From: Flavobacteriales bacterium
Lineage (GTDB): Bacteria; Bacteroidota; Bacteroidia; Palsa-965
Direction of reading: 5' to 3'
Assembly (NCBI GenBank): GCA_040377305.1
Contig: JBEIPA010000015.1
Location: 66,842 to 130,841, forward strand
DNA length: 64,000 nt
Shown: piece after piece, positions 31,571 through 60,882 of the stretch
Layout of the letters: each line of letters starts with the position of its first letter
Position numbering within the stretch: position 1 is the first letter of the stretch
Program-made: the position numbers and the translations under genes
The notes under the pieces: generated by a model
What the model was told of the DNA's origin: nothing
The model's input: the letters and a program-made list of their open reading frames with translations, nothing else
The model's database searches: none

Positions 31571-31605
31571 ACTGCTGACTGCCCGACTGCTGACTGTACG
31601 ACTGA
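31571..31605. repeat. Heptamer tandem repeat (ACTGCTG/ACTGCCCG) between convergent genes
   Basis: actgctg actgcccg actgctg actgtacg actg read directly. Confidence 0.7.
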
Positions 31606-31606
31606 A

Positions 31607-32941
31607 CTAGGAACCGTTCTCTTCGGTATCAAACTGATCTTCATTCTTCACGGTCATCTTCACCGTATCTACACTGTGACGGAATCGTTTGAGAATAACG
31701 AACTCGTATCCGCCGAATTCTTTGATCTCATTTACCGCTGGAATTCTTCCGAACATCCAGTTTACTAATCCGGAAACTGATTCGTAGTGTGGACTTTCCG
31801 GCAATGCAATCGGGAGTACTTCATTCACATCCGAAATTGACGCCATTGCATTCACGATAAACTCGGTATCTGATTTCTTATCGACTGACGGTTTCTCCTC
31901 ATCGTACTCATCCTGGATTTCTCCAACGAGTTCTTCGATCACATCTTCCAGAGTTACCAATCCCATGATACCACCGAATTCGCTGGTAACAATCGCCATC
32001 TGAATGTGTAGTGACTGAAACTCGCGTAACAAATCGTTAATGCGTTTGCTCTGAGGAATAAAGTGCGAAGGACGAATGATTCCTTCCATGTCGGCTTTCG
32101 TGAGGCGTTGTTGCTTCATCAGCTTCAGCATATCTTTCATGAAGATGATGCCGATGATGTTGTCCATTGAATCGCGGTAAACCGGAAAGCGGGAATATCC
32201 TTCGTCGATGATTGTATCGAGAATTTCTTTAGGCTCGCTATCGATATCAATAGCGGAAATCTTTGTGCGGGGAACCAGAATTGATTTCACAACGCGATCA
32301 TCAAATTCGAATACATTCTGAATCAAATCGTGTTCCGATTGTTTGATCGCTCCACCTTCTTCCGATTCCGTGAGGATCATTCTCAGTTCTTCTTCCGAAT
32401 GGATTTCCTCATGTTCAGCGCTCATCTGAATACCGAACATGCGAAGTACAAGTCGCGTGAGTTTATTAATCACCCACACGAATGGAGAGAATACCGCGTT
32501 GAAAATCCTTAACGGCCATGCAGTGAGCAATGCTGTTTGCAAAGAGAAGCGGATTCCCATTGTTTTCGGAACCTGCTCGCCCAGTACCATGTGAATGATG
32601 GTGATTAAGCCAACCCCGGTGATTAAGGAAATAATTCGAATGACATTTTCGCTTAGATCCCACGAGAGTTTGTGGAATAAGGGTTCGAAAACTTTCTCCG
32701 TCATAAAAGGTTCACCTACAAAACCGAGAACGAGGGATGAAATAGTGATACCCAACTGACAAGCAGATAGGTATCCGTCCATGTTATCGATAATCGTACG
32801 AACAATTTTGGCGCGACTGCTTCCCTGATTTATTTTCAGGTCAACTTGAGACGAACGCACCTTCACAATGGCGAATTCGGCTGCAACGAAAAATGCATTC
32901 AGAAGGACAAGGACAATTATTAAGAGCAGATCGGGGCCCAT
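31607..32941 (-). CDS. HlyC/CorC (CNNM + CBS pair + CorC_HlyC) family membrane protein
   Basis: FFVAAEFAIV, QLGIT, GEQVPK, SRFPVY, EFGG...TLEDVIEELVGEIQDEYD. Confidence 0.93.
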   Translation of the reverse strand: MGPDLLLIIVLVLLNAFFVAAEFAIVKVRSSQVDLKINQGSSRAKIVRTIIDNMDGYLSACQLGITISSLVLGFVGEPFMTEKVFEPLFHKLSWDLSENVIRIISLITGVGLITIIHMVLGEQVPKTMGIRFSLQTALLTAWPLRIFNAVFSPFVWVINKLTRLVLRMFGIQMSAEHEEIHSEEELRMILTESEEGGAIKQSEHDLIQNVFEFDDRVVKSILVPRTKISAIDIDSEPKEILDTIIDEGYSRFPVYRDSMDNIIGIIFMKDMLKLMKQQRLTKADMEGIIRPSHFIPQSKRINDLLREFQSLHIQMAIVTSEFGGIMGLVTLEDVIEELVGEIQDEYDEEKPSVDKKSDTEFIVNAMASISDVNEVLPIALPESPHYESVSGLVNWMFGRIPAVNEIKEFGGYEFVILKRFRHSVDTVKMTVKNEDQFDTEENGS

Positions 32942-32948
32942 AGGCGCA

Positions 32949-32956
32949 CAAATATA
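32949..32956 (-). promoter_or_regulatory. Bacteroidota -7 promoter element TATATTTG (minus strand)
   Basis: caaatata on +, 7 nt upstream of ATG 32941. Confidence 0.6.
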
Positions 32957-33007
32957 CGTACAATTCGCAATTGCTGGAAATCAGATGATTGCCAATTGTT
33001 CTGAGTT

Positions 33008-35245
33008 CTAAACACGGATTCCGACCACACAGATGTCATCCACCTGTTCAAACTGTCCGCGCCACGAATCGAACACAAGTTCCAGCTCGCGTTTCTGGCT
33101 GTGAATCTGTTGTGTCGCAATTTGAGTAAGTACATCGCGGAAACGACTCGATTTGAATTTCTTTCCTTTCGGTCCGCCAAACTGATCGGCAAATCCATCC
33201 GTGAACAGATAGAAACTGTCGCCTTTGTTCAATTGAATTTTTTGCTCAACGAATTCTTTGCGTGTATCAGAATCTCCACCCACAGAATGTTTCGACGGAC
33301 GGAAGATTTCCAATGCGCCGGTGTTACGATAAATGATTATCGGACGATTCGCACCACAGAAAGTGAGCTCGCCTTTTTGACGATTGAATGCACACAACGC
33401 AATGTCAATGCTATCGCGTGTGGCTTCTATGCCGTCCTGGTGAAGCTGTTCGCGAATGCCTTCGTCAATCAGGTTCAGGATTTTCCCGGGTGCAAGTTGA
33501 CCTTGTTCCGCAATGACAGAAGTCAGTTGAGAAGCACCCAGTACACTCATAAATGCTCCCGGCACGCCGTGACCCGTACAATCGGCAACTGCTACGAGTT
33601 GAACTTCCGGGGTATGATGATGCCAGTAAAAGTCTCCGCTCACAATATCCTTTGGACGATAGAATACAAAACTATCGGGGAAGGCTTGTTTCAATACGCG
33701 ATCGTCAGGCAGAATAGCTTGCTGAATGCGTTTTGCATAGCGAATACTATCTGTAATGTCTTTGTTCTTCGTTTCAATCTGATCGTAGGCGAACTGCAAG
33801 CGACTTTGTGCTTTTTTCGTTTCACGTGCACGTAAAAGGAAAAAGATCACAACGAGTACCATCACCACAACACCGGCACCAATCATCAGCTTGTAAAAAT
33901 TCTGATCGGCTTCAGCTTTCATCGCAGCCGCTTCCGATTTAATATCAGCTTCGCGTTGTTGTGCTTTCAGTTCTTCGAGCTGCTTCGTCTGTTGCTCCAT
34001 GTCGTAACGCGCTTTCATTTCCTCGCTATGACGACTGCCGGCTTCATTCAAAAGCGAATCTTTCAGCTTCAACGCAACGTCAGCGTAGCTCAGAGCAACA
34101 TTCGGTTGACCCATATTCTTGTAGATCGCCCACAACTCCAGTGCCGCATCGAGTTGATGGGTTAGTGAACCTGTTGCTTTTGCCAGCGAATCTCCTTCGA
34201 GCAGGAACGCCAGTCCTTCTGCATACTTTCCTTGTTTATTACGTAGCTTGCCATACGCAATGAGTGTGCTTGCAATCCCGGTCTGATCATTTGCTTTGCG
34301 CCGGTAATCGAGAGATAACTTGAAGTTCTCTTCCGCCTTTTTGAGATTATCCTGCTTGAAATAACACTCACCCATGTTCTTGTGAACGATGCCCAATCCA
34401 CGTTGGTCATTGGCCTGTGTGCGCAACTCCAATGATATGTGGAAATAGTACAAGGCACTGTCGTAATCCAGTTTCGACATGTAAATGGAGCCGATGTTGT
34501 TGTACGTGCTGGCAAGATCCTTCTTGTTGCCGGCTTTCTCCTTGTAAACAATTGCTTCGCGGTAAAAACGCAAAGCATCTTCATACTTATTCTGATTCAT
34601 GAACACCGTTCCGATGTTGTTCATGATCTTACCCATCATCCCGGGATCCTTATCCTCGTTGAATTTGGCATACTCAATACAACGGTAGTAGTTCTCTAAT
34701 GCGAGCGTGTAGTCGCCCATATTGTTGTACAGCAGTCCGAGATGAAGCAATGCACCGGCGATCCCGTCTGTGTCATTTACGAATTCACGATAGGCAAGCG
34801 AAGCATCGAGGTGTTTTTTTGCCTCTTTGTATTCTCCGGTGCGCAGCAATAAGTATCCGAAATTGTTCTGTGCGTCGTCGAGACAAAATGTGTCTTTTAC
34901 TGATTCCAGTTGATCAACGCCTTTCTGGTAGTACGGTCGCGCCTCTTTATTTTTCTGGAGGTTATCCAGACAAAGTGCTGCATAGTAATTCCATTCACCG
35001 GCTGTACGTGCATCATTTACTTTCTCTGCAGCGGTAGCTTTGTCCGCACAAATCTGAAACGCAGAATCCGCATTCATTTTACGGACCGCATACATGTATG
35101 CTTTTCTTGTCGGACGATCGTTCGGGTCCTTCTTCAGAATGGCCTCGCAGCTGTCAGCCTTGCCCTTCTGCGCAAATGCTAAATTCGATGCGAATAATCC
35201 GCAACAAATAAGCACGATTTTACCAATGCGTAATAGATCCCCCAT
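33008..35245 (-). CDS. Membrane sensor with signal peptide, TPR array, TM helix and SpoIIE/PP2C phosphatase
   Basis: TPRs (NNIG...ALxY), TM LMIGAGVVVMVLVVIFFLL, YAKRIQ, DIVSGDFYW, DCTGHGVPGAFMS, TDGFADQFGG, DDIC; start moved to ATG 35245. Confidence 0.92.
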   Translation of the reverse strand: MGDLLRIGKIVLICCGLFASNLAFAQKGKADSCEAILKKDPNDRPTRKAYMYAVRKMNADSAFQICADKATAAEKVNDARTAGEWNYYAALCLDNLQKNKEARPYYQKGVDQLESVKDTFCLDDAQNNFGYLLLRTGEYKEAKKHLDASLAYREFVNDTDGIAGALLHLGLLYNNMGDYTLALENYYRCIEYAKFNEDKDPGMMGKIMNNIGTVFMNQNKYEDALRFYREAIVYKEKAGNKKDLASTYNNIGSIYMSKLDYDSALYYFHISLELRTQANDQRGLGIVHKNMGECYFKQDNLKKAEENFKLSLDYRRKANDQTGIASTLIAYGKLRNKQGKYAEGLAFLLEGDSLAKATGSLTHQLDAALELWAIYKNMGQPNVALSYADVALKLKDSLLNEAGSRHSEEMKARYDMEQQTKQLEELKAQQREADIKSEAAAMKAEADQNFYKLMIGAGVVVMVLVVIFFLLRARETKKAQSRLQFAYDQIETKNKDITDSIRYAKRIQQAILPDDRVLKQAFPDSFVFYRPKDIVSGDFYWHHHTPEVQLVAVADCTGHGVPGAFMSVLGASQLTSVIAEQGQLAPGKILNLIDEGIREQLHQDGIEATRDSIDIALCAFNRQKGELTFCGANRPIIIYRNTGALEIFRPSKHSVGGDSDTRKEFVEQKIQLNKGDSFYLFTDGFADQFGGPKGKKFKSSRFRDVLTQIATQQIHSQKRELELVFDSWRGQFEQVDDICVVGIRV

Positions 35246-35272
35246 AGCCAGGTCCCAAGATAAGAAGAAGGT

Positions 35273-35422
35273 ATGAGGGATGGGGGACAAGGGATGGGGT
35301 ATTCGACCACGTATGAAATTATTTCCACAAAGGGATTCTGCATGCTGACAAAGAGAACAAACCGCTTTCCCCATTCCTCATCCCCCGTCCCCCATCCCTC
35401 ATTCCCCGTCCCTCATTCCTCA
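35273..35422. repeat. Facing heptamer repeat arms (ATGGGGG-type and TCCCCAT-type) between divergent genes
   Basis: atgaggg atggggg acaaggg atggggt (35273-35300) faces about 8 complementary units at 35367-35422. Confidence 0.8.
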
Positions 35423-35446
35423 CTACCAATTCCTATCTTTACATCA

Positions 35447-38040
<2,594 letters not shown>

Positions 38041-38043
38041 TTT

Positions 38044-38601: not shown

Positions 38602-38619
38602 TTGCGCGTTCCGCGCTAA

Positions 38620-38695
38620 GCCACAGATTCGCAGATTTCTCAGATTGCGCAAATTTTAATTGTTTTTATATCTGCGTAATCTGCGAATCTGCGGC
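38620..38695. repeat. Inverted CGCAGATT-type repeat arms forming a hairpin
   Basis: GCCACAGATTCGCAGATT (38620-38637) versus AATCTGCGAATCTGCGGC (38678-38695), 17/18 complementary. Confidence 0.85.
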
Positions 38696-38713
38696 AAAAG
38701 AAAAACGTTTGTT

Positions 38714-39331
38714 GTGAGTATAAATTTTCCACCAGTTAGCCTTGCAGATGAAGACGGCCTTTTAGCAGCCGGAGGAGATCTCGAAGAAGAAACTCTTCTC
38801 ACCGCATACCGTTCCGGAATCTTTCCTTGGTTTTCAAAAGGCGAGCCTATCCTCTGGTGGTCACCCGATCCGCGTTTCGTAATCCTTCCCGAAAATCTTG
38901 TCGTTTCTTCCAGCATGCGAAAAGTTCTAGACAAGAATATCTTCGACATCCGTTACAACGCTTCCTTCGAACAAGTAATCGAAGAATGCGCAAAGATCAA
39001 ACGTCGCGGTCAGCGCGGAACGTGGATCACCACCGAAATGAAACAAGCTTACATCGAATTACACAAAGCTGGTTATGCATTCTGCGGTGAAGCCTGGAAA
39101 GACAACAAACTCGTCGGTGGATTCTACGGCGTTAAACTCAACAACTGTTTCTTCGGAGAATCAATGTTCAGCAAAGAATCGAATGCATCAAAGGCGGCGT
39201 TTCTATCATTCGCGGAATCGTTTTTCAGTGAAGGAGGCAAGCTGATCGACTGTCAGGTTTACACAGAACATTTGGAGTCGCTGGGGGCGAAGATGGTGCC
39301 TCGAACAACTTTTGTGAAGATGATTCGATGA
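38714..39331 (+). CDS. aat: Leucyl/phenylalanyl-tRNA--protein transferase
   Basis: GLLAAGGDL, AYRSGIFPW, WWSPDPR, TWIT, FFGESMFS, ASKAA, IDCQ, HLESLGA; probable GTG start at 38714. Confidence 0.95.
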   Translation: MSINFPPVSLADEDGLLAAGGDLEEETLLTAYRSGIFPWFSKGEPILWWSPDPRFVILPENLVVSSSMRKVLDKNIFDIRYNASFEQVIEECAKIKRRGQRGTWITTEMKQAYIELHKAGYAFCGEAWKDNKLVGGFYGVKLNNCFFGESMFSKESNASKAAFLSFAESFFSEGGKLIDCQVYTEHLESLGAKMVPRTTFVKMIR

Positions 39332-39385
39332 TACAGTGATGCAATGATTCGATCTGCCAGGTTCCTTATCGGTCCTTTGCGTCGG

Positions 39386-39565: not shown

Positions 39566-39584
39566 ACTCGCAAAACAAACTAAG

Positions 39585-40478
39585 ATGGCTTCCAAAAAAT
39601 CTCACCCACTCTCAGGAACCGGCGTAGCAGTAGTTACTCCATTCCTCAAAGACGGAAACGTCGATTACCCCGGATTAACGAATGTGATCAATCACATCAT
39701 TAAGGGTAAGTGCGAGTATCTGGTGATCATGGGAACGACTGGTGAATCTCCGACGCTGAACAAAGACGAGAAAAAAGCCATTCTCAAACACGCAATTCAG
39801 GTTGCAGCCGGACGAGTTCCCGTTGTGTACGGAGTTGGTGGATTCAATACCCGCGAAGTTTGCGATGCACTGGAACACACCGATTTTTCGGGTGTAACTG
39901 CAATTCTATCCGTTGCGCCATTCTACAACAAACCGAATCAGCGTGGACTCTACGAGCATTACAAAGCTGTCGCGAATTCATCTCCGCTTCCGGTAATCAT
40001 GTACAATGTTCCGGGAAGAACGGGCATGAACATGACTGCTGAAACAACTTTAAAGCTCGCTCATGATTTTCCGCGTCTTGTCGCAATGAAAGAAGCATCG
40101 GGAAATATGGAGCAGATCATGGCCATTATCAAAGATGCGCCGAAAGATTTTCTCGTCATTTCAGGTGACGATTTACTCACGCTTCCCATTCTTGCTGCAG
40201 GCGGACACGGTGTAATTTCCGTTGTTGCAAATGCATTTCCACGAAAGTTTTCCGACATGGTTCGCCATTCACTCGCAGGCGATTTCGTAAAAGCACGCCC
40301 GTTGCATTACGTCCTGATGAAAGTAACGCAGTTGTTTTTTGCGGACGGAAATCCCGGCGGAGTGAAAGCATCGCTCGAAGCACAGAAGCTCTGCAAATCA
40401 CATGTACGTTTGCCACTCATGCCGGTGAATGATTCGGTACATGCTGGAATCGTTAAGGAGACGAAAAGAATTCGATAA
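39585..40478 (+). CDS. dapA: 4-hydroxy-tetrahydrodipicolinate synthase
   Basis: GTTGES, PFYNKP, YNVPGRTG, KEASG, SGDD, GVISV. Confidence 0.96.
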   Translation: MASKKSHPLSGTGVAVVTPFLKDGNVDYPGLTNVINHIIKGKCEYLVIMGTTGESPTLNKDEKKAILKHAIQVAAGRVPVVYGVGGFNTREVCDALEHTDFSGVTAILSVAPFYNKPNQRGLYEHYKAVANSSPLPVIMYNVPGRTGMNMTAETTLKLAHDFPRLVAMKEASGNMEQIMAIIKDAPKDFLVISGDDLLTLPILAAGGHGVISVVANAFPRKFSDMVRHSLAGDFVKARPLHYVLMKVTQLFFADGNPGGVKASLEAQKLCKSHVRLPLMPVNDSVHAGIVKETKRIR

Positions 40479-40560
40479 TTCGATAATTCGAAGATTTGAC
40501 TGGGACAGATAGCATGTGATTTCCATATATTAAATCTTCAAATCTTTCAAATTTTCGAAT
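40471..40560. repeat. Facing 8-9-mer repeat arms (TTCGATAA and ATCTTCAA types)
   Basis: ttcgataa ttcgataa ttcgaaga tttga ... aatcttca aatctttca aattttcg aat; the dapA stop lies inside the first unit. Confidence 0.7.
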
Positions 40561-43123: not shown

Positions 43124-43168
43124 AAGTAGGCGAGTCGGAATTCATTTCTGGCTCGCCTACTTATTTTT
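43124..43168 (+). terminator. Intrinsic terminator
   Basis: AAGTAGGCGAGTCGGAA / TTCTGGCTCGCCTACTT stem followed by ATTTTT. Confidence 0.8.
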
Positions 43169-44507: not shown

Positions 44508-44551
44508 GGGAGTTTTTTTTCAAAGATACGATTTCGGGTAGGTCCGGTTAG

Positions 44552-44647
44552 GGCATTGGGGCATTAAGGCATTGGGGCATTAAGGCATTGGGGCAATAAG
44601 GCATTGGGGCAATAAGGCATTGGGGCATTAAGGCATTGGGGCATTAA
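44552..44647. repeat. Tandem repeat, 6 x 16 bp GGCATTGGGGCA(T/A)TAA
   Basis: Six contiguous units counted directly, followed by a degenerate seventh. Confidence 0.95.
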
Positions 44648-44715
44648 GGGATTGGGACTGTTCAGCATCAGGGAATAGCTTAATTACCAAATTGTCTTTT
44701 CACGTGTTAGTCTAT

Positions 44716-44775
44716 ATGCCTATTAGCCCAGTGCCCCAATGCCCAATTTCCCCAATGCCCCAATGCCCCAATGCC
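44716..44775. repeat. Complementary octamer arm (ATGCCCCA)n
   Basis: gtgcccca atgccca atttcccca atgcccca atgcccca atgcc is the reverse complement of the TGGGGCAT core. Confidence 0.85.
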
Positions 44776-44814
44776 TTTTTTCCTAATTTAGTCCCTCATT
44801 AGTAAAGCTATTCT

Positions 44815-45270
44815 ATGTCCAATCCTCCACCATTTCCACCACCGAATACACCACCACCACCTCCGGGCGGACCTAATAATCCGTATGGCAATAATCCCTA
44901 CGGTCAGAATCCGTACGGTAATAATCCATACAACAATCCGTATCAGCAGAATCCTATGGGCATGCAGCGGGATGTGCCTAACGCTACAGCGATTCTTGTG
45001 CTGGGGATTGTTTCAATCGTTGGTTGTTTCTGCTACGGTATCATTGGCTTGGGTTGCGGCATCGCAGCACTGATTATGGCAAGCAAAGCTATGCAGGAGT
45101 ATAATCAGAATCCTAGCATGTTTAAGGTTTCCTCTTATAACAACGCGAAGGCAGGACGAATTTGTGCAATTATTGGAACAATTATTTCAGGTTTAACATC
45201 CCTGTGGTGGATCTGCCTGGTGGTTTTAGGAATTGGTGGATCTTATTATAGCAATCCATATAACTGGTAA
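44815..45270 (+). CDS. CCC-motif / DUF4190-like membrane protein with P/N/Y-rich N-terminus
   Basis: PNATAILVLGIVSIVGCFCYGIIG...Y..NP......NAKAGRICAIIG; NNPYG repeats. Confidence 0.85.
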   Translation: MSNPPPFPPPNTPPPPPGGPNNPYGNNPYGQNPYGNNPYNNPYQQNPMGMQRDVPNATAILVLGIVSIVGCFCYGIIGLGCGIAALIMASKAMQEYNQNPSMFKVSSYNNAKAGRICAIIGTIISGLTSLWWICLVVLGIGGSYYSNPYNW

Positions 45271-45275
45271 CCGAA

Positions 45276-45581
45276 ATGAGTTGGATCGATTGGATCGAGC
45301 AGCACTTGTTACCTTGTCCGAGTAAATCTTTGTTCGGATTGGACTGCCCGGGATGCGGAATGCAACGATCGATGGTGGATTTGTTGAAAGGTAATTTCAC
45401 CGACAGTCTCAAAACGTATCCGGCGTTGATTCCGATTCTGATCACGCTTGTGTTTTTAGGATTGCATTTGCGCTACAAATTCAAGTATGGTTCAACCACA
45501 TTGCAATACGCGTATATTTTTTCAATGCTCATCGTAGTCACATCCTACGTAATAAAACAAGTTCAATTTTTCAATCCGTAA
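45276..45581 (+). CDS. DUF2752 family membrane protein
   Basis: PCPSKSLFGLDCPGCGMQRS...GNF..S...YP. Confidence 0.9.
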   Translation: MSWIDWIEQHLLPCPSKSLFGLDCPGCGMQRSMVDLLKGNFTDSLKTYPALIPILITLVFLGLHLRYKFKYGSTTLQYAYIFSMLIVVTSYVIKQVQFFNP

Positions 45582-45594
45582 AAAAACCGACAAC

Positions 45595-46050
45595 ATGGAA
45601 AACACAAACCCACCAATGCCACCTCCACCACCTCCGACCGGCAATCAGAATCCAAATTATCAACAGCAGAACCCAAATTATCAGCAGCAGAATCCAAACT
45701 TTCAGCAGCAACAAGGCTATCAGCAGAATTATCAGCAGATGCCTCCCGGTGGATACCAACAGCAGCCGTTTGGTACACAAATGGATCATCCAAAGGCAAG
45801 CACCATTCAAACACTTGGAATCGTTGGATTAATTCTTACTTTCCTCTTGGGGATTGTAGGCTTGATTCTGAACATTATTGCTCTCTCAATGAGCGGTGGA
45901 GTACTTTCTGAAATTGATAACAATCCTGGCCGTTACTCAGATGTGTCGAGAAGAAAAGTGAAAAGCGGTCGTACCTGCGCAATCATTGGTCTAAGTATTC
46001 AGGCTTTCGTAGTGGTCGTACTTGTATTAGTTTTACTTGCGAACGGTTAG
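45595..46050 (+). CDS. CCC-motif / DUF4190-like membrane protein with Q/N/Y-rich N-terminus
   Basis: QQQNPNY repeats; LGIVGL...NNPGRY...KSGRTCAIIG. Confidence 0.8.
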   Translation: MENTNPPMPPPPPPTGNQNPNYQQQNPNYQQQNPNFQQQQGYQQNYQQMPPGGYQQQPFGTQMDHPKASTIQTLGIVGLILTFLLGIVGLILNIIALSMSGGVLSEIDNNPGRYSDVSRRKVKSGRTCAIIGLSIQAFVVVVLVLVLLANG

Positions 46051-46058
46051 AAATTGAA

Positions 46059-46433
46059 ATGATGCAACAACAACAACCAACCGGTTACAACAATCCTTAT
46101 CCGCCACCTCCGGGTGGTGGATATCAACCTTTCAATCACGGTCAGGGCTTTGGTATTCCAACCGATGTTCCAGGAGCCGGTAGTGCACAGATCTGCGGCA
46201 TTATCGGATTGATTTTATTCTTCAACATAGTCGGAATTGTACTCAACATTGTGGCAATTGTGCAAGGTGCAAAAGCAATGACCGAGTACACCAACAATCC
46301 CGGTCGTTACACCGAAGCATCTTTCCGTAAAGCGAAAAGCGGCAAGACGTGTGGTATCGTCGGCTTGTGTTTATTCGGATTCGGCATCATTGTGTTTGTG
46401 ATGTTCATGTTAGCGTTTGCATCTAGTTTTTAG
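46059..46433 (+). CDS. CCC-motif / DUF4190-like membrane protein, third paralog
   Basis: Q/P/G/Y N-terminus; AMTEYTNNPGRY...KSGKTCGIVG. Confidence 0.8.
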   Translation: MMQQQQPTGYNNPYPPPPGGGYQPFNHGQGFGIPTDVPGAGSAQICGIIGLILFFNIVGIVLNIVAIVQGAKAMTEYTNNPGRYTEASFRKAKSGKTCGIVGLCLFGFGIIVFVMFMLAFASSF

Positions 46434-49698: not shown

Positions 49699-49826
49699 AA
49701 TTCGAAAATTCGAGATTCGAAAATTTGAAGATAACAGCGTAGTAAATAAAAAGTCCGTTCATGTTGAACGGACTTTTTCAATTGTATGCTATATACGAAT
49801 CTTCAAATTTTCAAATCTTCGAATCT
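49699..49826. repeat. Facing TTCGAAAA and ATCTTCAA repeat arms enclosing a terminator
   Basis: aattcgaaa attcgag attcgaaa atttgaag at ... cgaatcttc aaattttc aaatcttc gaatc. Confidence 0.75.
49748..49778. terminator. Bidirectional intrinsic terminator
   Basis: AAAAAGTCCGTTCA-TGT-TGAACGGACTTTTT, a perfect 14-bp stem between convergent genes. Confidence 0.9.
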
Positions 49827-50803
49827 TACCATTTTGGTCTTATCACGCGAACCAATTTCCCGTCTTTCCACACCAGGCGACCTCTGCGGTTCGGGCCGTA
49901 TTTTGTTCCGTACTTCTTGTTGCGATTCTTGAGATCGTAACGGCGATTGTGAAAATCATCGCTATGTGACATGAAAGCATAACTGAATTCCACACTCGAA
50001 GTGAGGTATGAATCGTTGTGGTTTGAGTCTCCACGTTTATTACCGGGAGTAAAATTTTCAGCGAAGTCTGGCGAGACCGATGGAAGTTCATCCGTACGAT
50101 TTGCCAATTCAACCGAAAGCGCATTCGGTAATAAAGTAGGATCGGCATACGTTGTAGAAACGTCATCCAGGTAGTCGGTGAATGTGGTACGCCACGTGAG
50201 ATCAAATCCGATTCGGAACTGCTTGTCGAACGTGAAACAGAATCCACCGGTTGCAGGAATCACCGCAGTAAATCGGGAATACTCCACACCTTCTGTTGTC
50301 AACGGACGCAATTCAACCACTTCACCATTATAAACTGTTGTCGGATTGTGGTAAGCAACTCCTGCACCCAGACCGATGTACATTCTGAAGTTGTCTTCGT
50401 GGCGGAACGATCGTCCAAGGCCATACACTTCATAGAAAATATATTGTCCTTGTGCACTGAGTTCGAAAACATCATTGCGGAAGTTCAGGTTACGTGCATT
50501 GCGTGCAGGATTCTCCGAAAGTTTATCATCACCGGAAATTCTTGCCCAGGCAAGTGTTCCTTTCACTGCAAAATGTTTATGGAAGCGATAGCGGAAGAAT
50601 GCAGCAGTGGTCATGCGCGTTTCTGAAAGCTTCATGTCAGCAACAAAATCGCGACGGGTTGAATATCCACCACCAATATCACCGAGGTAGTTAGAAACAC
50701 CGACTGAAAAACCGGCATCCATATTATACTGTGCATTGGCTGCGCACCCGATAAGGAGTCCGGCAACAACTAACGACTTTCGAAGGATAGTACGTGTTTG
50801 CAT
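49826..50803 (-). CDS. DUF6089-like outer-membrane beta-barrel protein
   Basis: Signal peptide; NYLGDIG, RNLNFRN, RTTFTDYLDDVS, RGD...NDSY. Confidence 0.8.
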   Translation of the reverse strand: MQTRTILRKSLVVAGLLIGCAANAQYNMDAGFSVGVSNYLGDIGGGYSTRRDFVADMKLSETRMTTAAFFRYRFHKHFAVKGTLAWARISGDDKLSENPARNARNLNFRNDVFELSAQGQYIFYEVYGLGRSFRHEDNFRMYIGLGAGVAYHNPTTVYNGEVVELRPLTTEGVEYSRFTAVIPATGGFCFTFDKQFRIGFDLTWRTTFTDYLDDVSTTYADPTLLPNALSVELANRTDELPSVSPDFAENFTPGNKRGDSNHNDSYLTSSVEFSYAFMSHSDDFHNRRYDLKNRNKKYGTKYGPNRRGRLVWKDGKLVRVIRPKW

Positions 50804-50871: not shown

Positions 50872-51021
50872 CAGTAGGCAGGGGGGCAGTAGGGCAGTAA
50901 GCAGTATCTCGGATATTCCGGAAAAACGAGGAAAATTCGGGTAAAAGGAAAGGGAATCCCGATGGAATTCCCTCTTATTATTTTTGGACTGCCGACTGCA
51001 CTACTGCAGCCTGCCTACTGA
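50872..51021. repeat. Facing heptamer arms (GGCAGTA and ACTGCCG types) around a terminator
   Basis: cagtaggcag...ggcagtagggcagtaagcagt (50872-50905) versus gactgccgactgcactactgcagcctgcctactg (50987-51020). Confidence 0.75.
50943..50976 (-). terminator. Intrinsic terminator of the upstream DUF6089-like gene
   Basis: Minus strand GGGAATTCC-ATCG-GGATTCCC followed by TTTCCTTTT. Confidence 0.6.
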
Positions 51022-51022: not shown

Positions 51023-51991
51023 TTAGAACTTAGCACGAACCTTCCGGCGCTTACCGTACTTATTCTTTCCTTTAAAAATGTTGCCGTATTTAGACTTGTA
51101 AATCGAGCTTTTGCCTCGGTAAACATAGCTGAACTCAACGCCTGTAGTGATGTATGAATCGTTGTGTGTTGGATCTCCGCGTTTGTTAAATTTCTGGTTG
51201 CCTTCAGGATCTGTATAAGTTCCGAAACCAAAATTGTTCCCCCAGTTGGTTCCGTAACCAGCCTGTAATCCGAATGCATTTGCTGCAGCGTGATCTGTTC
51301 TATCTGCCAAAGCTACTGCGTCCGCGTTAGGAAGACTTGCAGGATCGGCATATGTGGTGCTCACGTCATCGAGGTAGTCTGTGAAAGCAGTTCTCCAGGT
51401 AACATTCCAGCCAATGCGGTATTTCTTGTTAATGGTGAAATAAACTCCGGCACTTGCAGGAATAATGAAAGTTACTTTTGTGTAACGCACGCCTTCTGTA
51501 GTAAGTGGACGTAAATCAACCCACTCATCGTTGTACCATGCTTTCGGGTTGTGATAAACTGCACCAGCTCCTAAACCGATATAAGCACGGAAGTTGTCTT
51601 TGTAACGATAGGTGTGCCCTAAGTCGTTTACTTCATAGAAGAACCATTCAAATTCACCAAAAGCTTCAATCAGGTTATTCTTAAAATTCAGATTACGATA
51701 GTAGCGAGGTGCGTTTGTGCATAGGCTGTCAGCTCCACGAACAACTGCCCAGGAAACGTTACCCTTGATAGAGAACATGGGGTTGAGCTTGTATCGTACG
51801 AAGCCATTTAGCGCAGTACGCGTTTGAGTCAACTTCATATCCGCAACGAAATCGCGACGTGTAAGTTCTTCGCCACCCATTTCACCGAGGAAATTCGCAG
51901 CACCAAATCCGCCTCCGAATTCCCAATAATATTGAGCCTTCGCAAGCATTGGAGCCAGGATCAAAACAGCAATTACGACGAGTTTTTTCAT
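51023..51991 (-). CDS. DUF6089-like outer-membrane beta-barrel protein
   Basis: Signal peptide; NFLGEMG, RNLNFKN, RTAFTDYLDDVS, RGD...NDSY; paralog of 49826..50803. Confidence 0.8.
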   Translation of the reverse strand: MKKLVVIAVLILAPMLAKAQYYWEFGGGFGAANFLGEMGGEELTRRDFVADMKLTQTRTALNGFVRYKLNPMFSIKGNVSWAVVRGADSLCTNAPRYYRNLNFKNNLIEAFGEFEWFFYEVNDLGHTYRYKDNFRAYIGLGAGAVYHNPKAWYNDEWVDLRPLTTEGVRYTKVTFIIPASAGVYFTINKKYRIGWNVTWRTAFTDYLDDVSTTYADPASLPNADAVALADRTDHAAANAFGLQAGYGTNWGNNFGFGTYTDPEGNQKFNKRGDPTHNDSYITTGVEFSYVYRGKSSIYKSKYGNIFKGKNKYGKRRKVRAKF

Positions 51992-52156
51992 GCCTTGACT
52001 TTTTACACTTTACTAATCCTACGAAAGTAGTAAAAATCGGGCAATTAGGCAATTAGGCTCTGTGGAATTTGGCCTTGCGACGTAATATTACTCTGGTGAT
52101 TCACCTTCACCCAAATGCCATTGTGCCCTAATGCCTGATTCCCCATTCCTAATCCC

Positions 52157-52164
52157 TAAATTTG
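52157..52164 (+). promoter_or_regulatory. Bacteroidota -7 promoter element TAAATTTG
   Basis: Consensus match 10 nt before ATG 52175, at the end of a repeat arm. Confidence 0.6.
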
Positions 52165-53113: not shown

Positions 53114-53145
53114 TATTTTAAAACTTAGTTACTCAATACTTTCGA

Positions 53146-54414: not shown

Positions 54415-54483
54415 GAAAACCAGGTAAGCCCTCAAAGGGTTAACCGGGAATCAAGTTATACAATAGTAAACCCTTTGAGGGCT
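54382..54483. repeat. 40-bp imperfect direct repeat with a 15-bp perfect inverted repeat
   Basis: 54382-54421 versus 54434-54473 match at 34/40; AGCCCTCAAAGGGTT (54427-54441) and AACCCTTTGAGGGCT (54469-54483). Confidence 0.85.
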
Positions 54484-55764
54484 ATGGACAGAATAAATGC
54501 ACCGGAATTCAAGCAAGTAACGCAAGTTGATTTGCAGAAGGCGACCGATCACAAACTGGATAATGGTATGCCATTGTACATTGTGAACTCGGGCACGCAG
54601 GAAGTGATGAAGATTGAATTCATTTTCAATGCGGGTATGCGCAACCGTGATTATCCAATGGTGGCGTCAACCGTAAACGACATGCTCGACGAAGGAACCA
54701 CTTCCCGTAACGCCATGGATCTCGCTGAGGAACTCGATTTTTATGGAGCGTTTATCGAGTCGGAGGTTACGCACGACCACGCGATTTTTACGTTGTGGAC
54801 ACTGAACAAGTACCTGGATGAGTCGCTCGCGATCGTGAAAGACATCTTGTTCAATGCTGCATTTCCTGAAATGGAGCTTGGCGTTTATCTCGACAACCGA
54901 AAGCAGAAGTATATCGTCGATTCCGAAAAAGTTTCTACGCTCGCGCGACGTCGGTTTTCAGAATTGTTATTCGGAGAGAAACACGCCTACGGAATTTCGA
55001 CAAAGCCAGAAGACTTTACGCGAATTACGCGCGGAGAGCTTCAGCATTTTCACACGGACTTCTACCACGCGGGTAATGGATGTATTCTCGCTGCGGGAAA
55101 CATTCCGGATACGCTGCAAGGAAAACTGAATCAGTATTTCGGTGGAGCAGAGTGGAAGAAGTCTTCCGGAATTATTACCACCGTTGGATCGGCAGTGTCA
55201 AATACGCAAAGGGAGCATCTGGTAAAGAAAGACGGAGCTATTCAATCTGCGGTGCGTGTTGGAAGAATTCTATTCAATCGTGAACACGCCGATTATCCTG
55301 CCATGCAAGTATTGAATTGTGTGCTCGGCGGCTACTTTGGTTCACGACTCATGGCAAACATACGGGAAGATAAAGGCTACACGTACGGAATTGGTTCTGG
55401 GCTCGCTTCTATGGTCGATGGCGGCTACTTCTACATTTCAACAGAAGTTGGCGTCGATGTTACTGATGCAGCATTGAAAGAAACGTATTTCGAAATCGAG
55501 CGCCTGCAAAATGATTTAGTGACTGCCGATGAGTTGAGCCTCGTTCGCAATTATATGACCGGTGTTTTTCTGCGCAGTACGGACGGACCCTTTGCAATGG
55601 CCGATCGCAAACGTGCTTTGATCGGATACAATCTTGGTTACGATTATTACGATCGATATCTCGAAACGGTTCGTACTGTTTCCGCGAATGAACTGCGGGA
55701 TCTGGCGCAAAAGTATCTGCAAAAGAAAGACCTTATTGAATTGGTTGCTGGAGACAGGAAGTGA
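54484..55764 (+). CDS. M16B peptidase, non-catalytic partner subunit
   Basis: No HxxEH; EGT...LDFYGA; LGGYFGSRLMANIREDKGYTYG (R/Y pair); start at ATG 54484. Confidence 0.9.
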   Translation: MDRINAPEFKQVTQVDLQKATDHKLDNGMPLYIVNSGTQEVMKIEFIFNAGMRNRDYPMVASTVNDMLDEGTTSRNAMDLAEELDFYGAFIESEVTHDHAIFTLWTLNKYLDESLAIVKDILFNAAFPEMELGVYLDNRKQKYIVDSEKVSTLARRRFSELLFGEKHAYGISTKPEDFTRITRGELQHFHTDFYHAGNGCILAAGNIPDTLQGKLNQYFGGAEWKKSSGIITTVGSAVSNTQREHLVKKDGAIQSAVRVGRILFNREHADYPAMQVLNCVLGGYFGSRLMANIREDKGYTYGIGSGLASMVDGGYFYISTEVGVDVTDAALKETYFEIERLQNDLVTADELSLVRNYMTGVFLRSTDGPFAMADRKRALIGYNLGYDYYDRYLETVRTVSANELRDLAQKYLQKKDLIELVAGDRK

Positions 55765-55789
55765 GACTATTGCGGCAATAAGAAAGAAC

Positions 55790-57379
55790 ATGGCAGTAAC
55801 GCCCAAACAAATTGAGAAATTCCGCTCATTCATTCTGAATTGTGATGCAGCATCCTGCAATCTGTTTCTGGAGAAAGCCGAGACCTTTCAGTTCGCCAAT
55901 GTAAAATCACTTGTTGCATTTCATGACGCGTTGTTATTACTTGAGGCTTATCCCTCTTCCGGGGAACTTTATGATCGTGCGAACAATCTGCTTCGGAATT
56001 TCGAAGTGCTTACGAAACGTTTTCTTCGGAAGAATAAATCGGCCCTCGCAAAACTGATCAATTCCGGGCTGAAGGGTACGGAAGCGCAAGGATCATTCAC
56101 TTATCCATTGCTTAAAAAGCTGTGTAAGTTTTCACCGGGGTCGGTTTACCTGCATTCGTTTGATGAGCAAGGAAAGCCTTTAAGTGAAGTGCTCAAACAT
56201 TTTCTGCCTAAAACAGAATTCGAAATACTTGAGGCCGGCTACAACAATGATGAATTACTGAACGAGCTTTTCGGTAAACAGAATCACCTGATTTCATTAA
56301 TCAATTCGTTAGGAGCTATTGGGTTGCCCGAGTCACTTCGCGATGCAATGTTTGATGAGCTCAAAGCATTTGCAGGAATTCGTTTCGATGGAAAAATTCC
56401 GGAACGATCTGTTGCACGTGGAATAGCTTCGCAGATTTTTATTCATGAAGAAGTTCAGAAGAAAGCCGATCCGCTGGAAGTAGTTAATCGCGAATTACCT
56501 GTTCCACTTAATCTTTCACTCGAACAGGAGAAAAAACTGGTGATTGATTGCGCTGCCATGCTTGCGTCGCTCAACCGTGAAACAGATCCGATTTCCTTGT
56601 GTGATGAACGTGGTGTTACTTATTTTGAGTTGGAACGCGGAGTGAGTGTTGCCTTGTTCAGCATGAAGGCGAACAGAAGGTTGCCGTTGGATTCATACGT
56701 TGGTTATGTCTTATTTAAGAATGGAGTACCTCATGCGTATGGCGGATCCTGGCTGTATGGAAACCGGGCATTGTTCGGGATCAACATCTTTGAACCATTT
56801 CGCGGTGGTGAATCTTCATTGACCCTATTGCAATTGCTTCGCGTGTATCGTCAGTATTTTGGAGTTTCTGCATTCAGTGTAGAACCCTATCAATATGGAA
56901 AGGATAACCCGGAAGGAATCGAGTCAGGCGCATACTGGTTCTATTACAAAATGGGATTCCGCTCCGACGATCATAAGCTCGCAACGTTGGCTGAGAGTGA
57001 ATCGGGGAAGATGAGGAAATCAAAATCTTACCGTAGTTCTGCTTCCACTTTGAAGAAGTTTACGGAGTCACACATAACGTGGAAGATTGACCATGTAAAA
57101 GTGTTGCCAAATCCGGCGGAGGTAAGTCGCGCTACTTCGGAATTCATCCGCAAACATTACAACGGTAATCGGGAAAAATGCATTCTTGATCTTTTGCAGT
57201 TTCACGGATTGCAGCGCGGGGATGTTCCGGATGAATTTCTCGTGACTTTCTTGTGGCAGAAAAGTCCGGTTGTTTCGAGACTGTATGTGAATATGGTGAA
57301 ACAACTTGCGGCTGCAAAGCTGACAAATGAGCGACAATACAACCAGATTTTACTTCACTTGTACGCTGAAATTCAATAA
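55790..57379 (+). CDS. Hypothetical protein with a possible GNAT-like C-terminal region
   Basis: Long ORF, probable ATG 55790; motif-dense block KNGVPHAYGG, GINIFEPFRGGES, PYQYG..NPEGIESGAYWFYYKMGFR. Confidence 0.65.
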   Translation: MAVTPKQIEKFRSFILNCDAASCNLFLEKAETFQFANVKSLVAFHDALLLLEAYPSSGELYDRANNLLRNFEVLTKRFLRKNKSALAKLINSGLKGTEAQGSFTYPLLKKLCKFSPGSVYLHSFDEQGKPLSEVLKHFLPKTEFEILEAGYNNDELLNELFGKQNHLISLINSLGAIGLPESLRDAMFDELKAFAGIRFDGKIPERSVARGIASQIFIHEEVQKKADPLEVVNRELPVPLNLSLEQEKKLVIDCAAMLASLNRETDPISLCDERGVTYFELERGVSVALFSMKANRRLPLDSYVGYVLFKNGVPHAYGGSWLYGNRALFGINIFEPFRGGESSLTLLQLLRVYRQYFGVSAFSVEPYQYGKDNPEGIESGAYWFYYKMGFRSDDHKLATLAESESGKMRKSKSYRSSASTLKKFTESHITWKIDHVKVLPNPAEVSRATSEFIRKHYNGNREKCILDLLQFHGLQRGDVPDEFLVTFLWQKSPVVSRLYVNMVKQLAAAKLTNERQYNQILLHLYAEIQ

Positions 57380-57448
57380 GTTAACCACTTATCAAACTTC
57401 ATATTTTCTGCACGAAATAGGCGTATCTTTACGTGTAGTGCACATCAA

Positions 57449-60400
57449 ATGCGAGTGAATAACCTCATCCTGAAGTACATCGCGGCAATCTCGATTTGTT
57501 TTCTCCTAATTGCGGAGAAGGCGAATGCAGCTCATTTAATGGGCGGAGAAATTACGTGGACATGTCAAGGCGGCGGACAATTTATTTTCACGCTCAAATT
57601 GTATCGTGATTGCAATCAAGTTTCGCTTGGAAACACGCAAGTGCTGAATGTGGACAATCATCCGATCATTGGGCAGATTCAATTGAATCAGGTTTCACAA
57701 ATTGATATTTCTCCAATCTGTAATCCGCTAGGCCCTGCAATATCCTGCGCAGCGCCTGGTCCTGGTGCAGTAGAAGAATTTATTTTCCAATCGGCTCCCG
57801 TAACACTTAACGGAACACCTCCTGCAGCAGGATGGATTTTTAGTTTCACTACTTGCTGTCGTAACGCTTCTCTCACCAATATTAATAATGGCGCCGGTCA
57901 GGGAATGACATTGCGTTCTATCATGTATCCGTACAATGCGAATAACATGAATCCGTGTTACGACAATTCGCCGGATTTTCTTGAGCGACCAGCTGTGATT
58001 CTTTGTGCGGGCGTACAATTTTCTTACAATCAAAACGCTGTTGACTTAGAATTGGATTCGCTCTCTTATTCATGGGCAGAACCACTTGACGACACCGTGA
58101 TTGGACAGCCAGCCTGGAATCCTCCTTTCAGCCCGAATTTTCTTCCGTGGAATCCTGGTTTCTCGTCAACAAGCCCGCTTCCTGGTCCGTCATTAAATGC
58201 GAATAACGTTCCAGCTACAATTGATCCAGTTACCGGACAGATTGATTTCACATCTTTCACAACTGGAAATTTCGTGACCTGTATCAAAGTGGAAGCATGG
58301 AAATGCGGTCAACTTGTGGCAGAAATTTATCGTGAGATGCAGGTCATCGTTCTCGCTTGCGGAAACAATTCTCCACCCACTGTAGCACCGCCGCTTAATG
58401 GCGGAACAACATTCTCAGATACGGTTTACGCAGGTGCAGTTGTCAATTTTCAATTGTGCGGCACTGATTTCGATTTGCTTTCGAATGGAAATCCGCAGTC
58501 GGTTACAATCACGGCATCAGGAAACCAATTCGGAACAGGATTTACGAATGCAGCAGCCGGATGTTTGAATCCTCCTTGCGCAACACTCACGCCACCACCT
58601 CCGGTTTCATCGCCGGTTACGTCGTGCACAGATTTCAACTGGCAAACGTCATGTAACCACATTAACACAACTAATCCGTGTTATGTGGGATCCAACGTCT
58701 ACAACTTCGTGTTTCAGGCGAAAGATGATTTCTGTCCCGCACCGGCATCGAAATTTGTAACGATTTCAATTACCGTTCTTTCTACTCCTCCGGTGATGTC
58801 GCCGAACGTGCATTGTCTCGCCGTGCAACCAAACGGAGACGTGCTGTTGACATGGGATCAACCGCTTGATACCGCGAACACATTCAATAGCTATCACGTG
58901 TTCAGTTCTACAAATCCAGCTGGGCCGTTTACGATCGTCGATTCGATTTTCAATTACAATCAGCTTACGTACACGCACGTTGGTGCGAATGCAAACTCGG
59001 GACCTGTTTATTACACGGTACAAACACGTGCAGGTTGCGCAGGCATGCAGTTCTGGCCTCCGCTCGACACCATGAGTACGATTTTCCTGCAGGTGACGAA
59101 TAACAATAATGGAACTGCAACGCTCAATTGGAATAACATTGCTGTTCCATCACCTGGATCACAGTTCGGTCAGTTCCTGATTTACCGGGAATATCCGACG
59201 GGCGTTTGGACATTGCTCGATTCAACTACGCTACTCACGTATATGGATACCATTGCTGTGTGTAGCTCTCAGGTGAATTACAGAATTGAAATTTACGATA
59301 CGCTTGGATGCTGGTCGGTTTCGAATGTTCAAGGCGATTTATTCCAGGATCCGACTATACCCGCAATTCCGGCTATTGATTCTGTTTCAGTGGATGCATT
59401 CGGAAATGCGCTTGTGGGTTGGCAACCGAGTACCACTGGCGACGTTGTAGGATACGTGGTGTATCAATTCATCAATGGTATCTGGACGGCAGTAGACACG
59501 TTGTATGGAATCAATAATACCTCGTACAACAACCTTATTTCGAATGCGGACCTGCAATCGGAAGAATACGTTATTGCTGCGTTTGATTCGTGCGGAAATA
59601 TTACGGCGTATAGCCCGGTACATCACACGCTGTTTGTAACGACGTATGTCAACATTTGTAATGCCACATGTTATCTGACCTGGAACGATTACATCAACAT
59701 GAATCCCGGTGTTGCAGGATTCAGCGTCTATATGAGTGTCAATAACGGACCATTCTCACTTTTGGGTACCACTGCAGCAAACGACTTTACATTCGAACAT
59801 GTTGGATTGATTCAGAATTCAACCTATTGTTATTACGTGGTTGCGAACAATTTACCGGGTGCAATTTCATCAACATCGAACACCGTTTGCGTTTTCTCTT
59901 CTGTTCCGCAGCAACCTGCTTACCAGTATCTGCGTGTAGTAACTGTGAGCAATCCAAATGAAGTAACGTTGATTGGTTACGTTGACAACTCAGCGGATAT
60001 TCAGGGTTACAACGTCATGCGTGCCGATACGAATATCGGTCCGTTTGCGCAAATTGGATTTATTCCGTTTAATCTGCAGACGACTGTTACGTATGTGGAC
60101 AATACGGCGATGACTGAACAACAGAGCTACTACTATCAACTTGTTGCAGTAGACAGCTGCGGGCATCCAAGTGTTTCATCGAATGTGAGCCGTACTATTT
60201 ATTGTAAAGCTCAAGCGAACTCGAACTTTACGAATACGGTTACATGGAACGATTATGAATCGTGGCTGGGTACGGTAGATTACTACAACATTTACCGTTA
60301 CATCGACGGAGTATTTGATCCAACACCGATAGCAACTGTCCCGTTCACCGGATCTGGTTACAACATGTATGTGGATGATGTGAGTGCGTTTTCACCTTCA

Positions 60401-60784
60401 TCCATCGGATTGTTCTCTTACGTTGTGCAGGCAGAAGAAGGTCCAGGTAATTTCTACCTGTACACCGATAGCAGCTTCTCAAATCTTGCAGAAGCACCGC
60501 AACTGCCATTGGTTTATGTGCCGAATGCATTCACGCCAAACAACAACGGCAACAACGACATCTTCATTCCGTCAACAGGTTTTGTTGATGTGGAGGATTA
60601 TCAGTTCCGTGTGTTTGACCGTTGGGGCGAACAGATTTTCTCTACTACCGATCGCACTGTAGGGTGGGATGGGAAAATCGGAACGAACAAATGTGAAGCA
60701 GAAGTTTACGTTTGGTCACTTACGTTCAAGACGGCAACCGGTCAGTTTATTGATATGGTTGGAACGGTTGCTCTTATCCGTTAG
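57449..60784 (+). CDS. Large secreted protein with gliding-motility-associated (CHU_C, T9SS type B) C-terminal domain
   Basis: AHLMGGEITW, LYRDC, CCRN, FN3/Ig-like repeats, YVPNAFTPN..G.ND.F, FDRWGE, GWDG, G.VALIR. Confidence 0.92.
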   Translation: MRVNNLILKYIAAISICFLLIAEKANAAHLMGGEITWTCQGGGQFIFTLKLYRDCNQVSLGNTQVLNVDNHPIIGQIQLNQVSQIDISPICNPLGPAISCAAPGPGAVEEFIFQSAPVTLNGTPPAAGWIFSFTTCCRNASLTNINNGAGQGMTLRSIMYPYNANNMNPCYDNSPDFLERPAVILCAGVQFSYNQNAVDLELDSLSYSWAEPLDDTVIGQPAWNPPFSPNFLPWNPGFSSTSPLPGPSLNANNVPATIDPVTGQIDFTSFTTGNFVTCIKVEAWKCGQLVAEIYREMQVIVLACGNNSPPTVAPPLNGGTTFSDTVYAGAVVNFQLCGTDFDLLSNGNPQSVTITASGNQFGTGFTNAAAGCLNPPCATLTPPPPVSSPVTSCTDFNWQTSCNHINTTNPCYVGSNVYNFVFQAKDDFCPAPASKFVTISITVLSTPPVMSPNVHCLAVQPNGDVLLTWDQPLDTANTFNSYHVFSSTNPAGPFTIVDSIFNYNQLTYTHVGANANSGPVYYTVQTRAGCAGMQFWPPLDTMSTIFLQVTNNNNGTATLNWNNIAVPSPGSQFGQFLIYREYPTGVWTLLDSTTLLTYMDTIAVCSSQVNYRIEIYDTLGCWSVSNVQGDLFQDPTIPAIPAIDSVSVDAFGNALVGWQPSTTGDVVGYVVYQFINGIWTAVDTLYGINNTSYNNLISNADLQSEEYVIAAFDSCGNITAYSPVHHTLFVTTYVNICNATCYLTWNDYINMNPGVAGFSVYMSVNNGPFSLLGTTAANDFTFEHVGLIQNSTYCYYVVANNLPGAISSTSNTVCVFSSVPQQPAYQYLRVVTVSNPNEVTLIGYVDNSADIQGYNVMRADTNIGPFAQIGFIPFNLQTTVTYVDNTAMTEQQSYYYQLVAVDSCGHPSVSSNVSRTIYCKAQANSNFTNTVTWNDYESWLGTVDYYNIYRYIDGVFDPTPIATVPFTGSGYNMYVDDVSAFSPSSIGLFSYVVQAEEGPGNFYLYTDSSFSNLAEAPQLPLVYVPNAFTPNNNGNNDIFIPSTGFVDVEDYQFRVFDRWGEQIFSTTDRTVGWDGKIGTNKCEAEVYVWSLTFKTATGQFIDMVGTVALIR

Positions 60785-60791
60785 TCCTTAT

Positions 60792-60882
60792 AATCACACA
60801 GAATCATAGCTTACGTATTGAAGGAAGGCACCCCGCGATCATAGAACACGCAAAAAAAATCTATGATTCTATGTGGTAAAAT
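60792..60882. repeat. Inverted arms between convergent genes
   Basis: cacacagaatcatag ... ctatgattctatgtg. Confidence 0.65.

Follow-up and report, generated by a model that had tools for sequence, protein, structure and literature searches.

Facing tandem-repeat arms between genes of a Flavobacteriales genome as probable gene-less derivatives of one-gene cassettes

MITEs (miniature inverted-repeat transposable elements) are short, non-autonomous and inverted at their ends, and have a counterpart that bears a gene, and each repetitive extragenic palindrome (REP) is a short palindrome by itself. Paired heptamer or octamer repeats, with no link to a cargo gene in the text available from these sources, are described for Geobacter metallireducens (PMC2700814) and Xanthomonas (GGGAATC; PMC4692102), and direct heptamer sets (TAACTGA) for Beggiatoaceae and likewise for some Bacteroidetes (PMC4679880). 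Here, we consider intergenic elements from a Flavobacteriales bacterium in which a tract of short tandem units (an arm), a core, and the inverted counterpart of the tract follow each other. Eight such pairs and two lone arms lie in a stretch of 64,000 nucleotides, the window, which is G000:C14:66842-130841, where G000 is the source genome and G015 its closest relative. The paired sites carry no gene and probably derive, as non-autonomous forms, from selfish cassettes of a single gene; the protein of such a cassette would recognise its arms and set off copying between sister copies.

The arms are a genome-wide feature. Periodic inverted arms were found in 253 of 2,807 spacers of 40-500 nt as opposed to none of 2,807 shuffles (447 versus 4 at a looser cut; 170 spacers of more than 500 nt were left out), and the elements occupy 9-16% of the spacers of this length in G000, with genes called by our own hexamer model and start codons approximate. 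Among tracts reported by Tandem Repeats Finder less than 150 bp apart, 119 of 414 pairs were inverted-similar and 34 direct-similar, and at distances of 10-20 kb 44 of 7,905 pairs were inverted-similar. In a count built on 11 hand-made family motifs, 179 arm pairs pointed inward and 4 outward. A typical arm consists of about four degenerate units of 7-11 nt with sharp ends, the order of unit variants differs from arm to arm, and the spacer between two arms is 22-103 nt long (10th-90th percentile). Paired arms were more family-typical than lone arms in 8/8 families, in a comparison where the lone-arm set may include chance motif hits. Single arms folded about as well as shuffles in most of 10 families, the exception being CAATRCG (-5.2 versus -2.0), and a few arms have been expanded by slippage, such as the tract at 44548-44656.

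The best match of a left arm was its own right arm in only 10 of 177 cases, with 5.3 expected. This figure indicates that arms follow a family template and not their partner, and it rules out local fold-back copying as the source of the arms. Other, non-tandem palindrome families were seen to nest in cores or to replace arm pairs at the same boundaries (in G000 and G015, for example at C52:242063, C2:4053, C7:137994; L022), and some of these resemble repeats beside Y1 or DUF559 genes.

Arms of this kind also enclose genes. The cargo-type genes of G000 comprise nine of the four-helix-bundle family TIGR02436, eight of the GxxExxY family, and one of DUF559, the three families that had been named in the initial annotation of the window; the naming was right for the first two, and the single DUF559 gene has a different palindrome flanking it, as judged by eye. 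When enclosure by arms was scored strictly, 11 of the 15 cargo genes that could be assessed passed, compared with 13 of 1,688 small genes of other kinds. Inverted arms scoring above 100 shuffles were found across the genus at 31 of 35 loci with a four-helix-bundle gene (the flank of one further locus being too short) and at 28 of 36 GxxExxY loci. The same was true of 26 of 30 further four-helix-bundle loci, these 30 being the ones examined out of 50 matches, and, across the phylum, at 24 of 32 GxxExxY loci, where periods are mostly 9-11 nt. Unit length differs by cargo, with 7-8-mers accompanying four-helix bundles and 9-11-mers accompanying GxxExxY. In addition, arm similarity drops with protein distance (Mantel rho -0.30 and -0.25, 0/2,000 permutations, in tests that include same-site kin), and for CAGTAGG, AATGTGC and CAGATT a single arm type stays with a single clade at three different sites.

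The four-helix-bundle protein corresponds to PF05635, with a sub-threshold match to bAvd and five-chain relatives in the PDB (2RLD, 2GSC), and has no recognised catalytic domain. The GxxExxY protein corresponds to PF13366 PDDEXK_3 (TIGR04256) and retains the catalytic-type D, E, K and Q residues in 35-36 of 36 proteins; a single-sequence fold prediction for it gave a predicted local distance difference test score of 39.8, too low for use. The cargo is under purifying selection, as nine cargo pairs gave proportions of nonsynonymous differences (pN) of 0.05-0.31 versus 0.58-1.05 for synonymous differences (pS; median 0.68). GxxExxY genes occur in 70 of 121 genomes of the phylum searched, and among records of mobile vectors cargo turned up in 8 of 72,556 for plasmids and 1 of 50,697 for phages.

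Two observations concern the surroundings of filled cassettes. Some belong to tandem arrays, in which a module of 60-150 nt that bears arms is present in up to about nine copies (G000 C53:26604, C60:144542, C46:191358; L054). Furthermore, a conserved and partly palindromic motif with the core AAACGTTT has 70 matches on the two strands of G000 together, and several cargo genes have it upstream (for instance at C52:210417, C45:49342, C10:136808, C6:187571, C45:240530, and C11:91953). Other genes downstream of it we take to be radC, dprA, ssb, an integrase, and RAYTs, and the motif is a candidate DNA-damage or competence operator.

Filled versions and presence/absence polymorphism, the joint lack of which the initial annotation had equated with slippage-derived microsatellites, were both found. 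Orthologous spacers in relatives are filled, empty, without the element, or occupied by another family (states scored by eye), and this range of alleles refutes simple slippage. Of 56 filled loci from five relatives, 31 map to junctions of G000, where 8 are filled, 5 are empty with the same or a related family, 9 are empty with another family, 5 have lone arms, and 4 have no arms. Two sites hold a four-helix-bundle gene in one species, a GxxExxY gene in another, and nothing in G000, and the empty element at C46:134240 retains part of the interior of its filled orthologue L052. By eye, the core of an empty AATGTGC pair, C34:65932-66184, retains the promoter and leader of the filled cassette C46:102397, a likely case of cargo deletion. 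At the porG-porG junction, 12 relatives showed one same-family pair, three pairs of another tandem family, one unrelated palindrome, and seven spacers without arms; at the porG-fabK junction, 20 relatives showed four armed pairs, two lone arms beside inserted genes, one unrelated palindrome, and 13 spacers without arms.

Turnover and persistence are both evident. The two closest genomes were compared over 1.77 of about 5.1 Mb of G015. Of 698 orthologous junctions, 33 are armed in both G000 and G015, 49 in G000 only, 67 in G015 only, and 549 in neither. Seven cassettes persist at the same site in both. At another site the two proteins are 24% identical, and in another relative (G002) two 80%-identical copies lie at different sites. 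The most telling case is the CATAG family, which has 23 copies in G000, 14 of them with a paralogue of at least 80% identity, and occurs in both G000 and G015 at 6 junctions (0.3 expected, p=7e-8). Identity between its same-site copies is 0.59-0.69, no higher than between unrelated sites, as compared to 0.80-0.92 for G000 paralogues. In a tree, no same-site pair are sisters and four G015 copies, among a G015 set in which two copies are incomplete as extracted, form a well-supported subfamily. Grouping of CATAG copies by genome and not by site suggests in-place overwriting, and the pattern would fit either such overwriting or repeated insertion at preferred sites. Within-genome homogenisation is shown in this one family.

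The window's own elements are given below, with coordinates counted from its first nucleotide, and with strand where one applies. A filled master is a filled cassette whose arms match those of a window site, scored against a shuffled null, and TAnnTTTG is the Bacteroidota -7 promoter consensus.

35273..35422, empty element, GGGATG 7-mer family, divergent spacer; arms ~35273-35299 and 35369-35422; no filled master above null
35434..35441, + strand, TATCTTTA, one-mismatch -7-type box ~11 nt beyond the arm
38620..38695, empty element, CAGATT 9-mer family; arms 38620-38656 and 38670-38695
40469..40560, empty element, ATTYGAAR 8-mer family; arms ~40469-40497 and ~40532-40560; family of four-helix-bundle cassette C11:25443
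44548..44775, empty element, GGCATT 8-mer family; expanded left arm 44548-44656, right arm 44727-44775
44784..44791, + strand, TAATTTAG, one-mismatch -7-type box ~8 nt beyond the arm
49699..49827, empty element, ATTYGAAR family, convergent spacer flanked by pepT and a porG-like gene; left arm 49699-49731, right arm 49798-49827
49748..49778, bidirectional terminator-like hairpin within the 49699 core
50872..51020, empty element, CAGTAGG 7-mer family; arms ~50872-50905 and ~50987-51020; family of four-helix-bundle cassette C52:210555
50952..50972, - strand, terminator-like hairpin (known from fold prediction only) within the 50872 core, downstream of porG-like gene 51023-51991
52040..52156, empty element, GGCAATT/GGCATT family, divergent spacer flanked by a porG-like gene and fabK; weakest pair (24 versus 21)
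52157..52164, + strand, TAAATTTG, perfect TAnnTTTG -7-type box abutting the right arm
60792..60878, CATAG family member, internally shortened; arms 60792-60809 and 60861-60876
31571..31604, - strand, lone arm, CAGT family, after the stop codon of minus-strand gene 31607-32941
39319..39355, + strand, lone GATGAT 8-mer arm overlapping the aat stop codon; no filled master above null

All eight pairs noticed in the initial annotation are present where it placed them. When the left half of each site was scored against the reverse complement of the right half, with 300 dinucleotide shuffles, the inverted scores exceeded the best shuffle at 8/8 sites (40/31, 37/22, 31/30, 63/39, 50/30, 36/23, 24/21, and 26/21), as opposed to direct-orientation scores of 9-14, and folding z-scores ranged from -2.4 to -9.7. 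The lone arms at 31571 and 39319 were likewise borne out, neither having a partner in its own spacer. The idea that the sites share an architecture and not a sequence applies to the cores and not to the arms, which fall into genome-wide families, with 40469 and 49699 belonging to one. Similarly, the unique core of 30-85 bp does not extend to 38620, where it is about 13 nt, or to 60792, where it retains family sequence. Two sites do enclose terminator-like hairpins, as proposed, whereas only one of the three said to end directly at a -7 motif does so (52157), the boxes at 35434 and 44784 being set off from the arm. Arm-less relatives keep the equivalent of the 52157 box. At the 49699 site, G013 lacks arms, whereas G015 carries arms of a different unit, between which sits a hairpin resembling 49748-49778.

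Several of these sites can be matched to filled counterparts. In the filled-master test, sites 38620, 40469, 49699 and 50872 matched filled cassettes of this genome above the null, and site 44552 (listed from 44548) and lone arm 31571 matched filled cassettes of relatives. In the case of 38620, the arms are near-identical to those around the GxxExxY gene at G000 C56:73351 (scores 64 and 54; shuffled maximum sum 46), and arms similar to the 44548 site enclose four-helix-bundle genes in relatives (L048, L217, L224). Site 60792 fell below the null, yet is a CATAG family member, and related arms flank the GxxExxY gene at C53:26604.

No arms occur within the glycan locus, as had been remarked, but this absence is uninformative, because its 31 junctions include just 3 of 40 nt or more (45, 46 and 81 nt). 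Acquisition of the locus within an arm pair ending at 31571 was rejected, as there is no left arm nearby; the closest tract of the left type lies 37 kb upstream of the window. Scans against Rfam and for tRNAs gave 0 matches in the window, and its type IX secretion system genes point to Bacteroidota. A small, degenerate CAAT-type hairpin at 32958-33000 (spacer 32942-33007), with a score equal to the shuffle maximum, is possibly an eroded ninth element. Perfect non-periodic inverted repeats lie at 54427-54483 (21-nt loop, no U-tract) and, in terminator-like form, at 43124-43163 and 62809-62846. Positions 44815-46433 encode three paralogous CCC-motif membrane proteins, with proline/glutamine-rich coding repeats at 44874-44931 and 45646-45710.

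The existence of filled versions and the allele variation support the proposal of the initial annotation that the sites are cargo-less forms of a mobile or recombinational system, with mobility inferred from genome comparison. In the mechanism that we envisage, the arm pair would be the cis-acting unit, folding as a hairpin or cruciform. The GxxExxY nuclease would nick its own arm family, whereas the non-catalytic four-helix-bundle protein would bind its own arms and recruit a host or partner enzyme; the path from this protein to movement is the weakest step. Repair from a sister copy would then overwrite the interior, bringing cargo in, taking cargo out, or bringing in a newer subfamily, and rarer events would seed new sites. 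Copies would persist only where they do no harm, in the stretch that runs from a stop codon to the -7 promoter box that follows.

A number of observations weigh against this interpretation. Mobility is deduced by comparing genomes, and no movement or cleavage was observed. In the short families, 90 of 95 cores match no other core and core terminators follow host context, which plain cargo loss would not predict. Target-site duplication gave no clear signal, with 20% versus 16% in the control at 5 nt or more and 8% versus 4% at 6 nt or more (n=139, with approximate ends and copies that may be old). The window's own sites yielded no filled allele among the four of eight examined (1, 2, 12 and 20 relatives), and 35273, 52040 and 39319 are those without a filled master above null. 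Same-site kin inflate the correlation between arms and proteins, and vertical inheritance applies to several cassettes. Arms also change in place, as there are two sites where the arm units differ although the proteins are sisters. Different families share sites no more often than by chance, as 20 of 33 shared sites differ in family with about 17 expected, a few of these reflecting detector error; a test for hot spots, or homing across families, was not significant either (13/26 sites, p=0.11), and an enrichment that had seemed apparent by eye was dropped. Finally, the overall split of CATAG copies by genome has weak bootstrap support (45/96).

Alternatively, the arms may be kept by the host as regulatory or RNA-processing elements, either protein-binding arrays or stems cut by RNase III as in the intervening sequences (IVSs) of 23S rRNA, with the gene encoding a domesticated binder and any mobility ancient, which we regard as unlikely. 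Retention by the host would account for arms that are family-typical at orthologous empty sites where core identity equals that of shuffles (0.36 versus 0.35, 11 pairs) and synonymous sites are near saturation. It would also account for the positioning of the arms, about 85% of 158 stop-facing arms lying within 25 nt of the stop, and a TAnnTTTG box lying 0-19 nt beyond 50 of 194 start-facing arms versus 0 of 158 stop-facing arms, as well as for core terminators that track context (12 of 88 co-directional, 5 of 34 convergent and 1 of 51 divergent spacers). The 28-bp stem of the Coxiella IVS, which the portion of the source available describes as cut by RNase III, provides a precedent (PMC4990558). 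However, there is no significant excess of G-U pairs on the transcribed strand (G-U versus A-C mismatches 99:79, p=0.15), leaving the suggestion in the initial annotation of long RNA hairpins co-opted for regulation with no positive support, and the spacer is divergent for 52 of 176 elements, so that neither flanking transcript would contain both arms. Moreover, the match of an arm to its own partner is hardly better than to the rest of its family, the two closest genomes differ at most armed junctions, and one family can take the place of another. The terminators inside cores also raised the possibility that arms were added around a host spacer, against which several arm-less alleles of only 6-43 nt argue; with alleles this short, abutment to stops and promoters fits insertion into tight spacers combined with selection.

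Movement of arm pairs in trans, by a RAYT/Y1 transposase or an Ssn-like GIY-YIG nuclease with the small genes as passengers, seems to us less probable still. The genome has 10 Y1/RAYT matches, the palindromes that nest in cores or replace arms would be in keeping with a mover of this kind, and the four-helix-bundle protein lacks a recognised catalytic domain; yet the inverted repeats next to all 10 Y1 matches lack periodicity (period score 1-4), arm types track the cargo tree, and the cargo is under purifying selection. Independent slippage microsatellites, locally mirrored by fold-back template switching, would explain the few expanded arms such as 44548-44656, but this origin is highly improbable in view of the strict inward polarity, the fixed length and common ordered motifs at dispersed loci, arms that resemble their family and not their partner, the specific tie to two gene families, and whole-element paralogues at 80-92% identity.

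A bolder form of the cassette interpretation, which we put forward as a speculation with the balance tilted against it, is that of transposase-free selfish DNA with pre-existing arm pairs as landing pads. Here, a 120-residue PD-(D/E)XK nuclease or an Avd-like four-helix-bundle ring would read a clade-specific four-unit code, drive homing among hundreds of arm pairs, swap cargo, and homogenise copies within each genome. If so, the 23S rRNA IVSs and the unexplained 7-9-nt paired repeats of many bacteria would have a single origin, and a large set of small sequence-specific nucleases would have targets readable from their flanks.

The arm pairs are real, widespread and out of the ordinary. They belong to the systems that combine a repeat with a small protein, and give two orphan protein families a substrate that can be tested. 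Proteins of the GxxExxY and four-helix-bundle families are common but have no known function; the flanking arms name a candidate substrate for each clade, such that function becomes directly testable, as it was for RAYT and Ssn. The link may also explain the source-less 7-9-nt paired repeats of Geobacter and Xanthomonas and the origin of rRNA IVSs that bear an open reading frame (ORF). No paper joining arms and cargo was found in a literature search that left most subscription journals and supplements outside its reach, the parts having been described separately.

Among described systems, MITEs differ in that the present elements have no clear target-site duplication, no DDE transposase, and unique cores in short families, and the genes enclosed between their ends are not transposases. 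Simple sequence repeats are local homogeneous tracts without paired polarity, and the arms do not conform to this pattern. The likeness to REPINs and their RAYTs is closer and comprises an inverted, hairpin-forming doublet, a poorly conserved spacer, doublets that are better conserved than singlets, a cognate small gene per family, and hundreds of intergenic copies, as far as the part of the source available describes them (Bertels and Rainey 2011, PMC3116915). In the present case, however, a protein of the PD-(D/E)XK or four-helix-bundle type takes the place of a cognate Y1 transposase, the arms are tandem 7-11-mers that are mostly not self-palindromes, the gene lies inside one arm pair, and spacer length is variable. 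Ssn with its NTS/SRM repeats, from the sections of the report at hand, shares the repeat-gene-repeat order, a small single-domain nuclease, many gene-less repeats, and a mobility that is likewise only proposed (Chenal et al. 2025, PMC11893778). Ssn is a single-domain GIY-YIG nuclease with self-hairpin repeats of 20-50 nt, whereas here arms pair across the gene and the partners are PF13366 PDDEXK_3 and PF05635, the latter without a nuclease domain.

The Geobacter, Xanthomonas and Beggiatoaceae repeats, in the accessible text of those papers, show four tandem units, pairs on opposite strands, variable distance, and a bias to stop codons and gene starts, and differ in being interpreted there as regulator sites or G-quadruplexes; the term 'four helix' is absent from the main text of PMC4692102 and PMC4679880. 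The 23S rRNA IVS offers a likeness in cargo as well, as the available portion of its description reports the same family (S23p / PF05635), a 28-bp terminal stem, and, upstream of the ORF, heptamers in tandem (Warrier et al. 2016, PMC4990558). The four-helix-bundle filled forms share this PF05635/TIGR02436 cargo, whereas the elements as a whole lie between protein genes, mostly lack an ORF, and have many arm families. The window copies have no ORF, and all window sites lie between protein genes and not in an rRNA gene; no 23S gene was found in the G000 assembly. By analogy, the ORF-bearing 23S IVS would resemble one such cassette lodged in rRNA.

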